From a virus (taxonomy: Duplodnaviria; Heunggongvirae; Uroviricota; Caudoviricetes): a DNA stretch of 37,649 nucleotides. A model generated the notes under the pieces. That model had not been told where the DNA came from and searched no databases. It was given only the letters and a program-made list of their open reading frames with translations. Each line of letters opens with the position of its first letter. The first letter of the stretch is position 1. The position numbers were made by a program, and so were the translations under genes. Shown here in pieces: positions 4,708 to 17,436 of this stretch. The DNA is taken from IMG/VR virus record IMGVR_UViG_2579778631_000021; one strand, written 5' to 3'.

Positions 4708-5135
4708 TGGTTGCCTCCTTTGCGAAGCTCAGCGGCGAAGGCTACTGCGTGATCATGATGTTCAAGTGTGTATGCGCACTCAGCAAACATCTCCACGCCC
4801 TGTGCCCGTACATCAGCCAGGAAAGCATCGGTGGCTGGGGTGTCTGATTGCAGAGACTTTGCGCGATAGTCATTCCACCCTCTTGCATACATGGGATTAA
4901 CTTGCACTCCATCTTTTACGCAATATGCCTGACCTCCACGGTTGATAACCTTGATTTCGTCCATTGCGCCAGACTTCATCCCCGCATTCTCCGCTGCCAG
5001 CGCCGCGCACTTGGCCTCCGCTTCAGCAAATTTACGCACCAGATACTCAGCGTTTGTTTCGTTAACCTTTAAATCTCGTGGGATGCATTTACCTTTCAGA
5101 AATCCATCCATCTCAATTAGCGTCATTTGTTTCAT
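4704..5135 (-). CDS. Hypothetical phage protein (143 aa)
   Basis: Start [12 protein letters not shown] overlapping upstream stop (ATGA). Confidence 0.45.
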
Positions 5136-5296
5136 TTCTTCCCACTCCACCACATCGCATTCAGGTATTTGTTTTGATTTACTGATGGAAAAGAATTTCT
5201 CTTAAGCAATTCCTCTCTCGATGGCATTGGCTTTACGCGTTGGCGAATAATCATTTCTGCTGGAAGAATGCCGGGATTGTATGCAAGTCCTCTCAT
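5132..5296 (-). CDS. Small hypothetical protein (54 aa)
   Basis: Start MRGLAYNPG with GAGGA SD; stop overlaps next gene start. Confidence 0.3.
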
Positions 5297-5306
5297 GGTA
5301 AATTCC

Positions 5307-5603
5307 TCAGTCATTACTGATAGCGCCATAGCGTGAGCGGTAATTACGCAGGCGCGGGTCGATATATTCAGGGAAGTGGGTATATGTGGCTTTGCGGAAT
5401 GGTCGGATTGATGTCTGGTAAATTCGCTCGCGTTCTTCTTTCTCTGCAAGCCATATACAATGGCGAAATTCCTTTTCCTCTTTCGTTTCCTGCGGTAGCG
5501 ACATTATCAGGTCGTAGTTTTTCCTGAATTTATCCAGCACCTCCGATACGGAATTGCCGGAACAGCGGCGCGCGTCATCCGCACCATACAAAGGCGCTGG
5601 CAT
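5307..5603 (-). CDS. Hypothetical phage protein (98 aa)
   Basis: ATG with GGAG SD; basic C-terminus. Confidence 0.45.
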
Positions 5604-5619
5604 GTTTTTCTCCGGTTGA

Positions 5620-6168
5620 TTATTTAGCTAACTTTTTCCAGATCGCTGAAACGTATTTGGCTTGGTGGATGGCATCATCAAGCGCGTTGTGGCGAGTTCC
5701 TTTGAATGGCATATCTCGCTTAGGGTCGAATCCTATTACCTTTCCAAGCTCGACGATTGTTCTTACGTCGCGGTCATTCCACCACTGCCACGGAACTGGC
5801 TGCCCTGTCAGCGAATAACTGTTGCGGAGAATAACGCAGTCAAATGATGCTCCATTCCCCAAAACCTGAACGAATTTGTGGTTAGCGTTCTTTATGATGA
5901 ATTCAGATAACCATGAAAGAGCCGTTGAAAGCTCTTGAGTGTTGCTGGTTAGCGATTTTCTGGCTTCTTCACTCTGTTCCATCCACCATAAAATCGTTGA
6001 AGCGTCAGGACGCGCCCGATATCGCATTGATGACTCAAGCGAGATATTTACCGAGAACTCTTCTCCTGTTTCTCCGGTATTCGGGTCAAAGAATACTGCC
6101 CCAATAGAAATAACTGGCGCGTATGGCCCGTTGCCCATTGTTTCAAGGTCAACCATTAAGTGATTCAT
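5620..6168 (-). CDS. DEDDh-type 3'-5' exonuclease (DnaQ-like fold)
   Basis: N-terminal MVDLETMG (Exo I motif), internal and C-terminal acidic/His motifs (HNALDDA). Confidence 0.7.
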   Translation of the reverse strand: MNHLMVDLETMGNGPYAPVISIGAVFFDPNTGETGEEFSVNISLESSMRYRARPDASTILWWMEQSEEARKSLTSNTQELSTALSWLSEFIIKNANHKFVQVLGNGASFDCVILRNSYSLTGQPVPWQWWNDRDVRTIVELGKVIGFDPKRDMPFKGTRHNALDDAIHQAKYVSAIWKKLAK

Positions 6169-6176
6169 GTAAGTCC

Positions 6177-6692
6177 TTAAATTGCGTGAATAGCGTGACG
6201 AGGGAAGGGGAGAGTTACTGGTGCAAAGGGGATTTCATCGTCGAAGTTCATAGGTGGTTCGCCGTAATTCCCATGCTGCTGAGATTGCTGTCTTTGTTGC
6301 TGGCCGTTATTTCGCTGAGGTGAAGACTGTTCATTGCTTCCTTGCTTGCCACCAAGCATTTGCATGGCTCCACCAACGCCCACGATAACTTCTGTAGTGA
6401 ACCGATCCTGTCCGCTTTGATCCTGCCATTTTCTTGTCCGCAATTTGCCTTCAAGATAAACCTCTGAGCCTTTTCGCAGATATTCGCTGGCAATTTCTGC
6501 CAGTTTCCCGCTCATTACCACACGGTGCCACTCCGTCTGCTCCTTTTGCTCTCCAGTTTGCTTATCACGCCATTGTTCTGACGTAGCAACTGTAAGGTTT
6601 GCAAATGCCGTTCCTGATGGTGAATATCTGATTTCTGGATCATGCCCAAGGCGACCAATAATGATCACCTTATTTACGCCTCTGCTTGCCAT
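6177..6692 (-). CDS. ssb: Single-stranded DNA-binding protein
   Basis: OB-fold N-terminus [23 protein letters not shown]..., Gly/Gln-rich linker, acidic DDEIPF tail motif. Confidence 0.9.
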
Positions 6693-7400
6693 TTATGCCG
6701 CCTGTTTTAGCTCGTTAACTCTGATGTTCATTACCTGAACGCATTTAGCCTGCGCCTCCTCGTTTCCAGCCATTAATTGCCAGTCACGCTGATAACGCTC
6801 GATGAGTTTTTTCTTGTCAGTTTCTGTTGACGCATAATCGCTGAAGTCTTTCAGGATTTGTTCGCAGTCAACCGATGGAGATTTCTGGTTGGTATTTTCT
6901 GGTGATGGTTTGTTATCTGATGCTGGGATTGCCCATCCCGGCAGTGATGGAGGGAGCCAGTAAAATCCTGTTCCATCCTTCAGTTTTGCCCTGTGCCACC
7001 CCTGCTTTTTATCGAGAGATGTTTGTGCGAAACCTTCCTCAAGGTTATACAGATACCGACCGATTCCCCACTGAACGGCAGCGCGCTTCATTGCACCGGA
7101 ACGACCACCTTTGACGGCTTCTACCTGCGTGTTTTCAGCAGCATCCCATTTGGTTACCCATTCGGAATCAATCTTTATTGATATGCCGCATTCAACGCCG
7201 CCGTTGTTGGGAATATCGCGGTATTCATTGCGCCATCCTGCTTTGCCGCAAACATCGTCCAGACGTTTCATGATTGCCCGGTTCGTGACATAAGCCAGCA
7301 CCATAGCCCACACTTTGCCATCGCGTGTTTTACCGCTTTGCTGTATTCGCCATTCGATATCTTCAGGGCTGAATGGCTCATCGAATTTATTCAAATCCAT
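6693..7400 (-). CDS. Rad52-like single-strand annealing protein (Sak-type recombinase)
   Basis: 235-aa ORF directly upstream of ssb; recalled resemblance to phage Rad52/22 family annealases; GAGG SD. Confidence 0.6.
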   Translation of the reverse strand: MDLNKFDEPFSPEDIEWRIQQSGKTRDGKVWAMVLAYVTNRAIMKRLDDVCGKAGWRNEYRDIPNNGGVECGISIKIDSEWVTKWDAAENTQVEAVKGGRSGAMKRAAVQWGIGRYLYNLEEGFAQTSLDKKQGWHRAKLKDGTGFYWLPPSLPGWAIPASDNKPSPENTNQKSPSVDCEQILKDFSDYASTETDKKKLIERYQRDWQLMAGNEEAQAKCVQVMNIRVNELKQAA

Positions 7401-7487
7401 AATTCACCTCAGAATGGACACGGCCCAAGGAAATAACGCTGATTTAATACTTCAGTCTTTGCCGCATTTAAAAATACGCGAACACCT

Positions 7488-7658
7488 TCACGATCTCCCT
7501 TCTGGCGATACATTAACGCCTGCTGCGTGTACATGCGTCTCTGTAACTTGCTCTCCTTCACTGTGGTTGCAAGTGACATGAATATCTCCTTCGTTACCGA
7601 TTAATTCTTTCATCTGACGAATGAATTCTTCGTCTGACCAGTTATCTGTAAAACTCAT
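7488..7658 (-). CDS. Small hypothetical protein (56 aa), acidic
   Basis: Start MSFTDNWSDEEF; ATG overlaps stop of upstream small ORF (ATGA). Confidence 0.35.
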   Translation of the reverse strand: MSFTDNWSDEEFIRQMKELIGNEGDIHVTCNHSEGEQVTETHVHAAGVNVSPEGRS

Positions 7659-7807
7659 TTCCTGCGATACCACGGAAGGTTGATAGCTGATTTCATCGCT
7701 TTATTTGCTTCAAGCCACATTTTTGAATCACCAATAAATCTGGCTATTACTGCTTTGTTCTGTGCAGCTCGAAGCATCTGGTGATTAATGGCTATTTCAT
7801 TGCGCAT
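7655..7807 (-). CDS. Small hypothetical protein (50 aa)
   Basis: MRNEIAINHQMLRAAQNKAVIARFIGDSKMWLEANKAMKSAINLPWYRRK; GAGG SD; below ORF-track cutoff. Confidence 0.3.
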   Translation of the reverse strand: MRNEIAINHQMLRAAQNKAVIARFIGDSKMWLEANKAMKSAINLPWYRRK

Positions 7808-7947: not shown

Positions 7948-8916
7948 TTAGTAGGTTATTTTTGTTGCGAATACTTCGCCTTTTACGATGGCTGTTATGA
8001 TATTTTTAGCAACATCTTCTGATGCACCAACCTTGATAAGGTCAGCAAGTATTTTGTTATTCACTTCTTTCCGGTGAGCTTTATCCTTTGCTCTACGCTC
8101 TTCTTCGTCCTTGATTCTTTTTTCTTCTGCTATTCTGGCTTGCTCTTTTGCTTCAGCCTCGCGACGGATTCGTTCAGCCTCCTCCTGTGCTTTTCTGCGT
8201 TCTGCTTCAATTGCTGCCTGCTTTTCTCTTTCAGCTCGTTCTGCTGCCTCTTTTGCTTCGCGCTGTGCTCGTTGCTCGGCTTCAATGCGTTCACGCTCTG
8301 CACGTTCTGCTGCGGCCTTAGCTTCTGCTTCTCGCCTTGCTGCTGCTTCAATTTCGGCTTTTGCCTTTGCTTCGGCTTCTGCTCTGGCTTTCTCTTCAGC
8401 TTCTCTTTTTAAGCGTTCTTCATGCTCTCGCTTTTCCTGCTCCGCTTTGAGTCTTGCCTCTTCTCTTTGGCGGTCAAATTCGCGATCCATCAAAATAGCT
8501 ATTTCATGGTCAGACTCAATTTGCTTTGCGAGAGCTTCAGCTTCTGCCTTAGCTTCTTCTTCGGCTTTAATCCGCGCCTGTTCTTCCTCATAATCAGTAA
8601 GAGGCTGGCGCGCCTTGGCTTTCAGCTCATCAAGGCGATCGCGCACTGTCTTGCGGTTGGCATCAATTAGCTTTGGAATTTCCTTCAGTTCAGCAACAAG
8701 GTCTTTGCCAAGACCATCGAGATATGTTTTCGTCTGCGCAACTTTATACGCCAGAGAAGCGATCTCCTTTCTGCCCTTTGCCGTTGTGATATCAGGCACA
8801 AAGGACATAACTTCACGTTCAACCTTTTGAAGGATTTCTTCAATCTGGTCGGCAGACTGAAATACAGTCATTGCATTTGCTTTTTCAATAACAACTAAAT
8901 CTGTTACTTCACTCAT
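7948..8916 (-). CDS. Phage protein with long E/A/K/R-rich coiled-coil low-complexity region
   Basis: 322-aa ORF, strong GGAGGA SD; residues about 110-290 are EAKR repeats; function unknown. Confidence 0.5.
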   Translation of the reverse strand: MSEVTDLVVIEKANAMTVFQSADQIEEILQKVEREVMSFVPDITTAKGRKEIASLAYKVAQTKTYLDGLGKDLVAELKEIPKLIDANRKTVRDRLDELKAKARQPLTDYEEEQARIKAEEEAKAEAEALAKQIESDHEIAILMDREFDRQREEARLKAEQEKREHEERLKREAEEKARAEAEAKAKAEIEAAARREAEAKAAAERAERERIEAEQRAQREAKEAAERAEREKQAAIEAERRKAQEEAERIRREAEAKEQARIAEEKRIKDEEERRAKDKAHRKEVNNKILADLIKVGASEDVAKNIITAIVKGEVFATKITY

Positions 8917-9168: not shown

Positions 9169-9750
9169 ATGAACAACTCATGGTGGCAGGAACTAATGCA
9201 TTTTTTCCTGCAAGGAATGACACTTAAACAGTTGATTCATATGCTAATCATCCTAATCATATTGATTATTGTTATGCCTGTAAGCGTAAAAGAATGGATA
9301 AACCTGCATAATCCAGAAATCCTTCCTCATTACTGGATGTATTACATCCTGTTGTTTTGCGTTAGCTATGTGCTTAACGGCGTTGTTAATTCCGCTTATC
9401 ACGCTGTGACTGAAAGAATTGAGATATTCGCTGCTCAGAAGCGCAAATCTAAAGAAGAGAAATACGTGCAAGATTTGTTTGATTCGTTAACTCTTGGAGA
9501 AAGAGCGTATTTGGCATTCGCTGTAGCCGCTAATAACCAGCTAAAGACAGAAAAGGGAAGCCCTGAAGCAATCTCATTGCTCGAAAAAGGGCTTCTTATT
9601 CGGGTACCTTCTGCTACTGGATATCCTGAAATCGACCGTTTTGTTATCCCGGAACGCTATAGAAATGAGTGCTACATTAGGTTTGCTGGGAAGAAAGACA
9701 GTCTTATGGATGAACTTATCGCTCAGGATAAGCATGGCAAAAACAAGTAA
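9169..9750 (+). CDS. SieB-like superinfection exclusion membrane protein
   Basis: 193-aa ORF on opposite strand to pL operon, AT-rich, N-terminal hydrophobic segments; position and size as for lambdoid sieB; recalled similarity only. Confidence 0.45.
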   Translation: MNNSWWQELMHFFLQGMTLKQLIHMLIILIILIIVMPVSVKEWINLHNPEILPHYWMYYILLFCVSYVLNGVVNSAYHAVTERIEIFAAQKRKSKEEKYVQDLFDSLTLGERAYLAFAVAANNQLKTEKGSPEAISLLEKGLLIRVPSATGYPEIDRFVIPERYRNECYIRFAGKKDSLMDELIAQDKHGKNK

Positions 9751-10792: not shown

Positions 10793-11509
10793 TCAAACCA
10801 GCCTTAGTTTTGTCTCAATTGCAACGCCTATAATCTTGCAGTTTCCATTGATTGGCACGAGAGGCCATGCAGGATTAAGTCCCTTGAGGTATTTATTTCC
10901 GCCGTCGATTATCAGCTTCTTGAATGTTGCTTCGTTAGAGTCAGAAAGTTTTGCTATGACCAAGCTGCCGTTGATCGCCTCCCTTCCGGTATCGAAAAGA
11001 ACGAATGTTCCCTCTGGAATGCTTAACCCAACCGGTGCCGTCATTGAATCACCTTCCACTTTAAGCCAGAACGCATTACCTTGAATATGCGCGTCAGACT
11101 CAAGCCAAACATCTATGTCTTTAATGGTGTATGGTTCGCATGCTTCACACCACGAGCCAGCCTGGATACTGCTTAACACCGGATACCTCTTTCCTGCTCT
11201 GTATTCCCCTGCATACCTTACGTTGGCATCGCTCTTAAGGCTTTCTGCCTGTTCTGCAACCTTGGCAGCAATTGACTGGCTAAAATCAGCAATTGAGACT
11301 TGCAACAATCGTGCAAAACCAGATGCAACCTCAACGTTTAGCGCGTTTCTGCCATTAAGATAATGCCCTACCGCTCCTTGGGTGATACCCAGTTCATCAG
11401 CGATTGAGTATTGGGTTATTCCCAATTCTTTCTTTTTTGACTCATACAAAGCCTTAAGACGCTTAGCGTCTTCGAGCTGTTCTGTCGTCAGTGATTTTTT
11501 ATTTTCCAT
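10793..11509 (-). CDS. cI: CI repressor (HTH N-terminus, S24 LexA-like autocleavage C-terminus)
   Basis: 238 aa; N-terminus MENKKSLTTEQLEDAKRLKALYESKKKELGITQ resembles lambda cI; C-terminal GDSM and FKKL catalytic Ser/Lys motifs. Confidence 0.9.
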   Translation of the reverse strand: MENKKSLTTEQLEDAKRLKALYESKKKELGITQYSIADELGITQGAVGHYLNGRNALNVEVASGFARLLQVSIADFSQSIAAKVAEQAESLKSDANVRYAGEYRAGKRYPVLSSIQAGSWCEACEPYTIKDIDVWLESDAHIQGNAFWLKVEGDSMTAPVGLSIPEGTFVLFDTGREAINGSLVIAKLSDSNEATFKKLIIDGGNKYLKGLNPAWPLVPINGNCKIIGVAIETKLRLV

Positions 11510-14865: not shown

Positions 14866-14897
14866 AGGCCTGCTGGTAATCGCAGGCCTTTTTATTT
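14866..14897 (+). terminator. tR2-like rho-independent terminator upstream of ninB
   Basis: 8-bp stem AGGCCTGC/GCAGGCCT, 8-nt loop, followed by TTTTTATTT. Confidence 0.6.
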
Positions 14898-14913
14898 GGG
14901 GGAGAGGGAAGTC

Positions 14914-15354
14914 ATGAAAAAACTAACCTTTGAAATTCGATCTCCAGCACATCAGCAAAACGCTATTCACGCAGTACAGCAAATTCTTCCAGACCCAACC
15001 AAACCAATCGTAGTAACCATTCAGGAACGCAACCGCAGCTTAGACCAAAACCGAAAGCTTTGGGCTTGCCTTGGTGACGTCTCTCGTCAGGTTGAATGGC
15101 ATGGTCGCTGGCTGGATGCAGAAAGTTGGAAGTGTGTGTTTACCGCAGCATTAAAGCAGCAGGACGTTGTTCCTAACCTTGCCGGGAATGGCTTTGTGGT
15201 AATAGGCCAGTCAACCAGCAGGATGCGTGTAAGCGAATTTGCGGAGCTATTAGAGCTTATACAGGCATTCGGTACAGAGCGTGGCGTTAAGTGGTCAGAC
15301 GAAGCGCGACTGGCTCTCGAATGGAAAGCGCGATGGGGAGATCGGGCAGCATGA
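14914..15354 (+). CDS. ninB: NinB recombination protein
   Basis: MKKLTFEIRSPAHQQNAIHAVQQILPDPTKPIVVTIQERNRSLDQNRKLWACLGDV recalled as near-identical to lambda NinB. Confidence 0.85.
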   Translation: MKKLTFEIRSPAHQQNAIHAVQQILPDPTKPIVVTIQERNRSLDQNRKLWACLGDVSRQVEWHGRWLDAESWKCVFTAALKQQDVVPNLAGNGFVVIGQSTSRMRVSEFAELLELIQAFGTERGVKWSDEARLALEWKARWGDRAA

Positions 15355-15878
15355 CTATCAAATCAAATACGCCAGCACACGACAAGGACTGCTGGCAAAC
15401 GCCGCTTTGGCTTTTTGATGCACTGGATATTGAGTTTGGATTCTGGCTGGATTCGGCAGCGAGCGACAAAAATGCTCTGTGTGCTCACTGGCTAACTGAG
15501 GCCGACGACGCGCTCAATTCTGAGTGGGTAAGCCACGGTGCAATCTGGAATAACCCACCGTACAGCAATATCAGGCCGTGGGTGGAAAAAGCCGCTGAGC
15601 AGTGCATACAACAGCGACAGACGGTAGTTATGCTTGTGCCAGAGGATATGTCAGTCGGATGGTTCAGCAAGGCTCTGGAGAGTGTCGACGAAGTTCGCAT
15701 TATCACTGATGGACGGATTAATTTTATCGAACCATCGACAGGGTTGGAGAAGAAGGGAAACAGCAAAGGCTCCATGCTGCTGATTTGGCGACCGTTCATC
15801 AGTCCTCGACGGATGTTTACTACCGTATCCAAAGCGGCATTGATGGCGATCGGGCAGGGCGTCAGGAGGGCGGCATGA
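15351..15878 (+). CDS. Phage Dam-like N6-adenine DNA methyltransferase (orphan)
   Basis: NPPY catalytic motif ([10 protein letters not shown]); start overlaps ninB stop (ATGA); no adjacent restriction gene. Confidence 0.75.
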
Positions 15879-16794: not shown

Positions 16795-17077
16795 CCTACG
16801 CAAAGAAGCGCGCGGCAGAGAATGCCAGGTACGTATTTACGGCGTATGCAATGGCAATCCTGAAACTACAGTTCTGGCACATTACCGGATGGCTGGAATT
16901 TGCGGAACGGGAATGAAACCTGACGACATGATCGGCGCATGGGCTTGTAGCGCGTGTCACGATGAAATCGACCGACGCACCCATAACCTCGACAACAAAG
17001 ACGCCAGACTTTACCACCTCGAAGGCGTGATCAGGACGCAGGCGATACTGCTGAAGGAGGGGAAGATTAAGTCATGA
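16787..17077 (+). CDS. DUF1364 (YbcO-like) zinc-binding putative nuclease
   Basis: CxxC...CxxCH pattern (CQVRIYGVCNGNPETTVLAH...CSACHDEIDRR) typical of YbcO-like proteins upstream of rusA. Confidence 0.65.
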   Translation: MANLRKEARGRECQVRIYGVCNGNPETTVLAHYRMAGICGTGMKPDDMIGAWACSACHDEIDRRTHNLDNKDARLYHLEGVIRTQAILLKEGKIKS

Positions 17078-17436
17078 ACGAATATCAGTTTGTGCTTCCA
17101 TACCCGCCGTCGGTGAACACCTACTGGCGAAGACGGGGAAGCCAATACTACATCAGCGATAAAGGCCAGAAATACCGAAAAGACGTTCAGCAAATCATCC
17201 GCCAACTCAAGTTAGACATTTTCACCAAATCACGACTACGAATCAAAATAATCGCAGACATTCCGGACTCACGTCGCCGCGATCTCGACAACATCCTTAA
17301 ATGCTTGCTCGACTCCCTTATCCACGCCGGATTTGCGGAAGACGACGAGCAATTCGATGACATTCGCGTAATTCGTGGTGTGAAAGTACCAGGCGGAAGG
17401 CTTGGAATAAAAATCACCGAACTGGAGAACGTATGA
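17074..17436 (+). CDS. rusA: RusA Holliday junction resolvase
   Basis: 120 aa; MNEYQFVLPYPPSVNTYWRRRG... and acidic catalytic residues (DLDN) typical of RusA. Confidence 0.85.
   Translation: MNEYQFVLPYPPSVNTYWRRRGSQYYISDKGQKYRKDVQQIIRQLKLDIFTKSRLRIKIIADIPDSRRRDLDNILKCLLDSLIHAGFAEDDEQFDDIRVIRGVKVPGGRLGIKITELENV

Follow-up and report, generated by a model that had tools for sequence, protein, structure and literature searches.

The occurrence of a Rad52-type annealase next to a 3'-5' exonuclease raises the question of which enzyme prepares the DNA ends for recombination in such a phage, and whether the exonuclease is the partner of the annealase at all. We addressed this question in the IMG/VR virus record IMGVR_UViG_2579778631_000021 (Caudoviricetes), and the whole 37,649-nucleotide (nt) stretch of this record is called the window below. 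[quoted passage not shown] The window itself is a P22-like temperate phage. We conclude that the exonuclease is a mobile, optional, general-purpose DNA-end enzyme and not an obligate partner of the annealase. As to the module as a whole, we cautiously prefer to see it as a P22-like recombination module of the pL operon, in which resection would be carried out by RecBCD modified by the phage protein Abc2 and the exonuclease would be an accessory.

The exonuclease gene (5620-6168, minus strand) encodes a DEDDh 3'-5' exonuclease of the Rv2179c-like/T4 DexA family. In Pfam it matched PF16473 (Rv2179c-like 3'-5' exonuclease) with 240 bits against a cutoff of 27 (E 1.3e-71), and its residues D7, E9, D110, H160 and D165 align with the DEDDh residues of T2/T4 DexA. 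The catalytic residues are therefore intact and the DnaQ-fold DEDDh assignment made in the original prediction was borne out. The only sequence matches in the PDB were 8KEL and 8KEN (E 2.7e-12), both of which are T4 DexA (PMC12153337). The Pfam family is named after an exoribonuclease, and the sole sequence-matched solved homologue is a DNA exonuclease, DexA. T4 DexA prefers single-stranded DNA, contributes with its 3'-5' activity to recombination-dependent (I-TevI) intron homing and scavenges host DNA (PMC12153337). From the fold we infer the 3'-5' polarity, the substrate (DNA or RNA) and any SSB dependence of the window enzyme. The two proteins belong to the same PF16473 family and have all DEDDh residues in common; however, their identity is 28-34% depending on the alignment used, DexA is longer (227 aa compared to 182 aa) with extra loops of its own, neither S87 nor D90, which belong to the tetramer residues of DexA, is conserved when the window exonuclease is aligned with it, and the genomic contexts are entirely different.

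The distribution of the exonuclease gene speaks against an obligate tie to the annealase. We collected 80 IMG/VR loci with an essentially identical annealase, which represent 79 distinct contexts after dereplication at 99% identity. SSB and Abc2 are encoded in all 80 of these loci, and the exonuclease is encoded in only 27 (27 of the 79 dereplicated contexts) and absent from 53. The slot between the SSB gene and abc2 contains the exonuclease alone in 24 loci, an HNH gene together with the exonuclease in 3 and the HNH gene alone in 16, and it is empty in 37. The exonuclease gene forms a self-contained cassette, cleanly bordered by the stop codon of the SSB gene on one side and the ribosome-binding site of abc2 on the other. 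The junction without the exonuclease in HK75 reads ...CAATTTAA/TCAGGAGAAAAACATG (abc2), and the two junctions in the window read ...CAATTTAA/GGACTTACATG...exo...AAATAA/TCAACCGGAGAAAAACATG, where the slashes mark the borders of the cassette. With either SSB allele (identity to that of the window about 95% in one and about 70% in the other), some loci have the cassette and others lack it. The exonuclease is also missing from Salmonella and Citrobacter prophages whose annealase, SSB and Abc2 have diverged, and a Klebsiella prophage has one.

The relatives of the exonuclease lead to the same view. The family was collected by tblastn and comprised 1,788 phage records, all T4-type dexA genes included. 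Relatives with 90-100% identity always lie between SSB and abc2, and those with 78-88% identity still follow an SSB gene, with abc2 not always detected. A sister clade of about 60% identity (about 60 IMG/VR loci, L188-L247, and L166, phage phiNP) has the exonuclease as a stand-alone gene beside xis/int, often after a DUF2303 gene, and no SSB or annealase was found near it. Among more distant relatives, the one in RcWhiteOak lies beside an Enc34-type single-stranded DNA-binding protein and a DNA polymerase, the one in Carvaje beside a helicase and a primase, and others in a P2-type early operon (with a P2-type primase) or next to integrases; no annotated annealase was found beside the distant relatives sampled. 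The adjacency of SSB and exonuclease is also seen in the unrelated Vibrio phage 1.106.O. Therefore, the presence in 27 of 80 loci, the clean junctions and the relatives in other contexts indicate that exonuclease and annealase do not form a fixed pair, and the original prediction was not upheld where it had paired the two.

One group of relatives deserves separate mention. A protein of about 820 aa (L165:1588-4055, LC567820.1, prophage PPompW_14744, frameshifted there; also in L201 and L242) joins a RecE-like part to a DexA-like domain. The 148 residues before the DexA-like domain are 67% identical to RecE 458-591 (E 2e-62, BLASTP against K-12 RecE), and the region of residue 591 is where the 5'-3' nuclease domain of RecE would begin. 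The DexA-like domain of the fusion is 57% identical to the window exonuclease, and no Pfam model matched its N-terminal part. In these prophages of the enterohaemorrhagic Escherichia coli (EHEC) type the fusion gene is followed by xis-int and not by recT or an annealase gene. The RecE-scaffold fusions, RecE itself (exonuclease VIII of the Rac prophage) and the window gene all occupy the nuclease slot of lambdoid early-left operons; RecE differs in its 5'-3' PD-(D/E)XK catalytic domain and in being followed by recT, and the window exonuclease is a stand-alone domain.

A different route to resection is offered by abc2 (5307-5603, minus strand), which starts 16 bases downstream of the exonuclease. 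Its product matched PF11043 (E 4e-62) and is 93% identical over 98 aa to the experimentally characterised Abc2 of P22, an anti-RecBCD (RecBCD-hijacking) protein. P22 Abc2 binds RecC; the modified RecBCD keeps its helicase and 5'-nuclease and ignores Chi, and the protein that it loads is proposed to be the phage annealase in place of RecA. According to a published model, Abc2 thus hijacks RecBCD and gives a resection nuclease to phages that lack their own (PMC9836394). Abc2 is the functional counterpart of lambda Gam. The view that the module is not of the Red exo/bet/gam kind was therefore correct in so far as no homologue of Red Exo, Bet or Gam is present in the module, but the functional counterpart of Gam was overlooked, as the original prediction stopped at position 5620. 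A 5'-3' exonuclease of the lambda Exo/YqaJ or RecE type was also not found among the early-left and nin ORFs that were scanned, which are a part of the ORFs of the window. The module is no two-component recombinase of the Lambda Red/RecET type either: its nuclease is a DEDDh enzyme and the co-occurrence of nuclease and annealase is not obligate. No Abc1 homologue was found, and the SSB and exonuclease genes occupy the position of abc1. Chi sites are absent from both strands of the window, which is uninformative, as only about 0.5 per strand would be expected.

The annealase is composed of two parts of different origin. In Pfam the protein matched PF04098 (Rad52_Rad22) over aa 4-136 (E 5e-26; 91.9 bits, where the cutoff is 20.3), and this domain is present in all 120 homologues listed; the ERF family PF04404 gave no match. 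When the PDB was searched with a sequence profile of the annealase family, RAD52 was not reached, and the best match (E 0.13) was an unrelated ribosomal protein; thus a comparison of folds was needed. The AlphaFold2 (AF2) model, built from a 52-sequence alignment with a mean predicted local distance difference test (pLDDT) score of 82.8, consists of an alpha/beta domain (aa 1-160), a disordered linker (163-176) and a three-helix bundle (179-234, with helices 179-192, 196-209 and 214-234). In a Foldseek search of this model against the PDB, ranks 1-17 were all yeast Mgm101 or human RAD52, with probabilities up to 1.00 and E from 8e-4, at low TM-scores of 0.2-0.45, and no RecT or Red-beta structure was among the 50 matches listed. 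Judged by its profile match and modelled fold, the annealing domain is of the Rad52/Sak type and not Erf or RecT, as had been predicted; profile searches placed neither the annealase nor the exonuclease in another family. The Pfam scores of annealase, SSB and exonuclease all exceed the curated cutoffs by a wide margin and lie well outside what chance would give.

The C-terminal part, in turn, is that of P22 Erf. In BLASTP, annealase residues 157-235 align with P22 Erf 134-205 at 63% identity (E 2e-29), the N-terminal domains of the two proteins are unrelated, and the C-terminal 70 aa match 172 phage records. The annealase is therefore chimeric, with an annealing domain of the Rad52/Sak type joined to an Erf-type C-domain, and the shared C-domain accounts for its database and PHROG label "Erf-like". 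On the window the N-terminal domain (aa 1-160, Rad52/Mgm101-type annealing fold) corresponds to 6921-7400, and the linker (aa 161-178, predicted to be disordered) with the C-terminal bundle (aa 179-235) and the stop codon to 6693-6920, both on the minus strand. We presume that the C-terminal bundle is a partner-interaction domain. Red-beta, a distant annealase of Rad52 fold, binds partners via its three-helix C-domain (PMC6393309). P22-type Abc2 modules carry the Erf-type annealase C-domain, and the C-domain appears to co-vary with the type of Abc2, as far as two variants can tell; this would fit a role of the C-domain as a partner-interaction module as in Red-beta. A Klebsiella prophage (L254:2829-4877) has the same annealing domain with a different C-domain, and the gene at its abc2 position is 35% identical to P22 Abc2.

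The annealase has a further segment of note. At the end of the N-terminal domain (aa about 131-160; 6921-7010, minus strand) the sequence GWHRAKLKDGTGFYWLPPSLPGWAIP has a W/P pattern that is invariant across the family. The segment falls beyond the Pfam Rad52 match, and the AF2 model gives beta strands here with high confidence. A WW domain was considered here and rejected, as the phmmer match to the PRP40 WW domain was weak (E 0.1-0.6) and no Pfam WW match appeared even at E 10; we keep it as a resemblance. Given the proline-rich extension of the SSB described below, this W/P-rich module could be a module for binding proline peptides, which we offer as a lead only.

These elements can be combined into the P22-like scheme that we prefer. 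By its identity to P22 Abc2, the window Abc2 would bind host RecC and turn RecBCD into a Chi-independent resection machine that produces 3' single strands, with loading diverted from RecA. The phage SSB, by homology, would coat the 3' single strand. The Rad52-fold annealase, probably recruited via its Erf-type three-helix bundle, would then pair this strand with complementary single-stranded DNA, e.g., another resected end or a replication fork, and NinB/Orf and RusA may help in mediation and resolution. The least supported step is that of the DexA-family enzyme, which would most plausibly trim non-homologous or excess 3' tails or flaps on SSB-coated DNA, so that the annealed ends could prime synthesis or be ligated. 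Such trimming would be analogous to the action of T4 DexA in recombination-dependent homing and of E. coli ExoI together with SSB. A link to recombination or single-strand processing is supported by the DexA-like domain that stands in for the 5'-3' nuclease domain on the RecE scaffold in EHEC-type prophages, and by the place of the gene behind an SSB gene in its relatives of 78-100% identity and beside one in the Vibrio phage 1.106.O. In this scheme the exonuclease is neither the resection nuclease nor an equivalent of Red Exo.

Several points weigh against the P22-like scheme. The annealase-seeded loci are phylogenetically related and their cassette frequencies are thus descriptive only. The clade of about 60% identity and the distant relatives lack an annotated annealase next to them, and mostly an SSB too; the family therefore has no intrinsic tie to annealing. 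Substrate, polarity and any SSB dependence are deduced from the fold, and this is so for every lambdoid member of the family. The co-variation of the annealase C-domain with Abc2 covers two variants only. Moreover, 3'-5' single-strand exonucleases usually oppose recombination by destroying 3' tails (PMC12315714), and EcD, an E. coli homologue from the literature, reportedly restricts T4 (PMC12153337).

One could argue that the DEDDh enzyme is nevertheless the dedicated partner of the annealase. In place of Red Exo/Bet, the two would then make up a two-component recombinase whose polarity is reversed, in which the enzyme would resect 3' strands and leave 5' overhangs for the annealase. The annealase, SSB and exonuclease genes are adjacent, tightly packed and co-oriented, the exonucleases of the 78-100% clade nearly always follow an SSB gene and usually an annealase gene too within a Rec module, and the same domain replaces the 5'-3' nuclease domain of RecE in some prophages. 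However, a partner would have to be missing from 53 of the 80 loci with the same annealase, from none of which SSB or Abc2 is missing, and Abc2 already gives a resection route through RecBCD. The fusions on the RecE scaffold are followed by xis-int without an annealase, no annotated annealase accompanies the sampled distant relatives, and the annealase C-domain is common to P22 Erf, yet P22 has no such exonuclease. Thus we consider a dedicated partnership improbable. The exonuclease could instead take part in competition between phages, in defence or in anti-defence, either by cleaving the 5-hydroxymethylcytosine (5hmC) DNA of superinfecting T-even phages, as is reported for EcD, or by removing a nucleic-acid signal or substrate of host defence. 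EcD is an E. coli DexA homologue that was reported to cleave 5hmC DNA and to protect against T4, and DexA W152, which was tied to 5hmC recognition (PMC12153337), seems to correspond to W130 in the window protein when residues are counted on the alignment. The gene also acts as a mobile optional cassette. Of 5426 complete E. coli genomes 173 carry it, and 184 of its 185 places there are chromosomal; the sister clade of about 60% identity occupies the int-proximal end, a common site of accessory genes. On the other hand, the window gene is inside the pL operon and has no promoter-like site of its own, so its expression in the lysogen is not expected, and in its clade it always lies between SSB and abc2. 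In PADLOC the match of the exonuclease was no more than a generic CRISPR-associated DEDDh one (E 1.3e-4), and the other proteins of the module had none. EcD (HAK9828821.1) may be a different protein or belong to a different clade, and its numbering, in which A78 equals DexA D90, fits neither the window protein nor the clade of about 60% identity exactly. A role in defence is therefore unlikely in our opinion, if somewhat less so than a dedicated partnership.

Two explanations remain. The exonuclease may serve the neighbouring HNH homing endonuclease by processing the cleaved 3' ends during homing of the cassette, as DexA does with I-TevI. The role of DexA in homing is documented, some relatives carry an HNH gene in the neighbouring slot and Bas106 has both genes; the window, however, has no HNH gene, and the two genes occur together more rarely than expected (3, 16, 24 and 37 loci with both, HNH only, exonuclease only and neither, respectively; odds ratio of about 3.5 favouring the exonuclease without HNH, p 0.06-0.09). 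A functional linkage of HNH and exonuclease was rejected, as no positive association was seen in the 80-locus set, and we hold service to homing to be the most remote of the explanations given here. Alternatively, the enzyme could be an accessory of replication or nucleotide salvage, proofreading-like or end-degrading, which would act in rolling-circle replication or break down host or linear DNA and would sit in the Rec module only incidentally. The host-DNA scavenging by T4 DexA (PMC12153337) points in this direction, as do the distant relatives that adjoin a DNA polymerase, a helicase/primase or a P2-type primase. Lambdoid phages, however, use the host replisome and no phage polymerase is present here, and the position of the exonuclease is invariant in its clade. 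Furthermore, we know of no temperate phage that degrades host DNA wholesale. Consequently, we give little credence to this explanation and retain the P22-like module with Abc2-modified RecBCD as the preferred one.

The module as such has already been sequenced, annotated and classified. The 2.3-kb block is 92.5-92.6% identical at the nucleotide level to mEpX2/mEp235 over its full length, 97.9% to Bas106 and 86% to epsilon34 and g341c, and the same module genes are annotated in all five. The genome paper of epsilon34 (2008) called the nuclease of gene 34 "unusual in this context" and described a likeness of gene 36 to Erf that is confined to the C-terminal 56 residues (PMC2629481), which is the same chimeric architecture as that of the window annealase. 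A survey in Genome Research in 2025 then described DnaQ-like 3'-5' nucleases in lambdoid Rec modules, citing epsilon34 (PMC12315714). The remark of the original prediction that a 3'-5' nuclease is unusual in this place was therefore fair, but it was made in 2008 already and generalised in 2025. The same survey defines the ES18 functional type by an anti-RecBCD protein, an SSB, a nuclease and a strand-annealing protein and counts 25 such phages among 314 enterobacterial ones (PMC12315714). The window module is of the ES18 functional type and the epsilon34 sub-type, in a contiguous early-left cluster without extraneous genes. Genes 33-36 of epsilon34, the prototype of the sub-type, which also includes mEpX2, mEp235, g341c and Bas106, have the same four functions in the same order of annealase, SSB, 3'-5' nuclease and Abc2. 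Nothing substantive differs between the window and this type; the window joins an Sf6-type SSB allele to the exonuclease cassette, without the HNH gene.

Among the better known systems, the module can be compared to that of P22 (arf, erf, abc1, abc2), with which it has in common the operon position (kil, arf slot, annealase and, further on, abc2), Abc2 itself, the Erf C-domain and presumably the logic of hijacking RecBCD. P22 differs in having an ERF annealing domain where the window has a Rad52/Sak-type one, in possessing abc1 and in lacking such an exonuclease. Lambda Red has the same operon position and the same purpose, namely RecA-independent single-strand annealing with RecBCD neutralised; however, it uses a 5'-3' exonuclease and blocks RecBCD by the DNA mimic Gam, whereas in the window Abc2 modifies RecBCD, the phage has its own SSB and the DEDDh 3'-5' nuclease is dispensable in relatives. 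E. coli ExoI (SbcB) belongs, like the window exonuclease, to the DnaQ-fold 3'-5' class, has no sequence relationship to it beyond the superfamily and, with about 475 aa including an SH3-like and a C-terminal domain, is much larger. ExoI is a single-strand exonuclease that works on DNA coated with SSB, docking on the C-terminal SSB tip with a dissociation constant of about 98 nM (PMC6393309). Sak of the lactococcal phage ul36 and other phage Rad52-like annealases are often encoded beside ssb without a dedicated exonuclease (PMC2896510, Lopes et al. 2010). Sak has a Rad52_Rad22 family annealing domain like that of the window protein, which adds the Erf-type C-domain and the W/P-rich beta module and belongs to an enterobacterial module containing Abc2.

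The least expected result concerns the SSB. The protein matched PF00436 (E 2.6e-38, Pfam) and TIGR00621 (180 bits against a cutoff of 54, E 4.5e-53), and its body (6225-6692, minus strand) is composed of an OB fold, a Gln/Pro-rich linker and the acidic tip ...NFDDEIPF. The IPF tip is not the true C-terminus: exactly 15 residues follow, in agreement with the roughly 15 extra residues noticed in the original prediction, and these 15 codons with the stop codon occupy 6177-6224 on the minus strand. Exactly 15 residues past IPF are found in 116 of the 120 closest SSB cluster representatives (73-99% identity, from Escherichia, Klebsiella, Salmonella, Citrobacter and Phytobacter), and the variation among these homologues is conservative, [AS]P[VI]TLPFPRH[AT][IV][HY][AV][IL]. 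The length and skeleton of the extension are also kept in SSBs of unrelated phages, with the C-terminal consensus AP[VI][TG]L-x6-[IMF][HF]-x-I: the extension is APIGLMHPTHAIFSI in the Hafnia phage Pocitis76, APVGLQFGKKFMHVI in the Vibrio phages K435 and 1.106.O, APIGLMHNNNFMHCI in the Vibrio phage 1.036.O and APIGLPYGRNFIHCI in gp39 of the Klebsiella phage Seu621. The loci of such SSB-like proteins with the extension are L172:2066-2584, L173:2048-2584, L174:2069-2584, L167:2901-3458 and L175:864-2084. On the strength of this conservation of length and skeleton, in close homologues and in unrelated phages, we conclude from the sequences that the extension is a selected peptide and not a read-through accident.

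The DNA of the extension is conserved as well. Its 45-nt core (6177-6221, minus strand) is a conserved junction element, which is 100% identical in five phages with diverged SSB bodies and present in 158 of 160 loci, in all four combinations of SSB or HNH before it and exonuclease or abc2 after it. The element is flanked by the HNH cassette site on its 5' side and by the exonuclease cassette site on its 3' side and is thus a junction for two independent cassettes. In Sf6 (genes 26-27, L002:2817-3779) and Bas106 (L003:3378-4340) a free-standing HNH gene is located exactly between the IPF codon of the SSB gene and the extension. By this insertion the SSB ends canonically with ...DIPF and the HNH protein inherits a 14-residue tail.

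What the peptide does can be approached from the way SSBs are recognised. SSB partners dock on the terminal phenylalanine and its carboxylate. Published work supports this mode of docking in part (PMC5872125). If so, the extension should alter the choice of partners. We tentatively propose, as a possibility that we would not put higher than that, that the extension is a functional re-targeting peptide, which by burying the phenylalanine carboxylate would keep the host interactome (ExoI, RecQ, RecO, PriA and others) off the phage intermediates or would recruit a phage partner. Candidates for such a partner could be the W/P-rich beta module of the annealase, the annealase C-domain or the DexA-like exonuclease. 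For the SSB itself, the AF2 model (51-sequence alignment) had a mean pLDDT of 55, and near 30 in the tail, and says nothing on the extension; a search of the open-access literature for the tail motif "IPFAP" found nothing relevant.

The surroundings of the module are those of a P22-like early-left region. The genes across 5307-7400 are contiguous with intergenic gaps of 0-16 nt and form a block between kil and the ea/int region. A promoter-like site was looked for on the minus strand from 7625 to 5000 and none was seen; therefore the block reads as one stretch of the pL early-left operon. To the same operon belongs the upstream neighbour kil (7655-7807, minus strand), the host division inhibitor (PF06301 Lambda_Kil, E 1.7e-20; phrog_2055). 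Directly upstream of the annealase lies a 56-aa ORF of the Sf6 gp29/HK97 gp42 type (7409-7579, minus strand; phrog_1723, E 4.5e-34), which is kept in most related loci. It overlaps a 61-aa ORF (7488-7673, minus strand) at the position of P22 arf, which is also that of Sf6 gp30 and mEpX2 gp35. All that this ORF shares with P22 Arf is a weakly matching SDEEFI motif (E 0.07), and a Pfam search gave no match for it. Its positional equivalents Sf6 gp30 and mEpX2 gp35 are annotated as "recombinase", and such database labels on the overlapping ORFs at the arf position carry no evidence. The description of the module as three ORFs was thus accurate as far as it went, but incomplete, since it omitted abc2, the small ORFs at the arf position and kil.

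Downstream of abc2 there is a homologue of P22 ORF56 (DUF2737 type; 5132-5449, minus strand / 5138-5296), with 74% identity over 53 aa. It is kept after abc2 in P22, Sf6, HK75 and mEpX2 and is always linked to the distal end of the module. Between a tL-like terminator and kil, an ORF at 7948-8916 (minus strand) encodes an extremely charged, coiled-coil-like protein of 322 aa, rich in Glu, Lys, Arg and Ala (Sf6 gp33 type; phrog_1376), for which no Pfam match was found. Further away, the window encodes an integrase (1419-2489), SieB for superinfection exclusion beside the immunity region (9169-9750, plus strand) and, assigned by position only, a 238-aa ORF at the cI position (10793-11509, minus strand). 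The nin region contains the recombination mediator NinB/Orf (14896-15354, plus strand), a DNA methyltransferase (15291-15878, plus strand) and a RusA-type Holliday junction resolvase (17074-17436, plus strand). O/P-like replication genes and Q are present as well, and two ORFs of 721 and 431 aa, which have the size of a portal and a coat protein, respectively, were assigned by size and position only.

The window is one more instance of a known module and leaves the general picture unchanged. Its value is that it sharpens a question raised but not analysed in the 2025 survey, namely the role of a 3'-5' exonuclease in a single-strand-annealing module. Nature has provided near-isogenic modules that either have or lack the exonuclease, and likewise the HNH gene, which are ready-made material for a genetic test. 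The residual interest thus lies in the role of the 3'-5' nuclease and in the conserved extension of the SSB. If the extension is indeed a re-targeting peptide, it would reserve single-stranded DNA for the phage pathway. A functional extension would be of relevance to the way in which phages keep host proteins away from their recombination intermediates, and also to the pairing of annealases with their cognate SSBs when recombineering systems change hosts.

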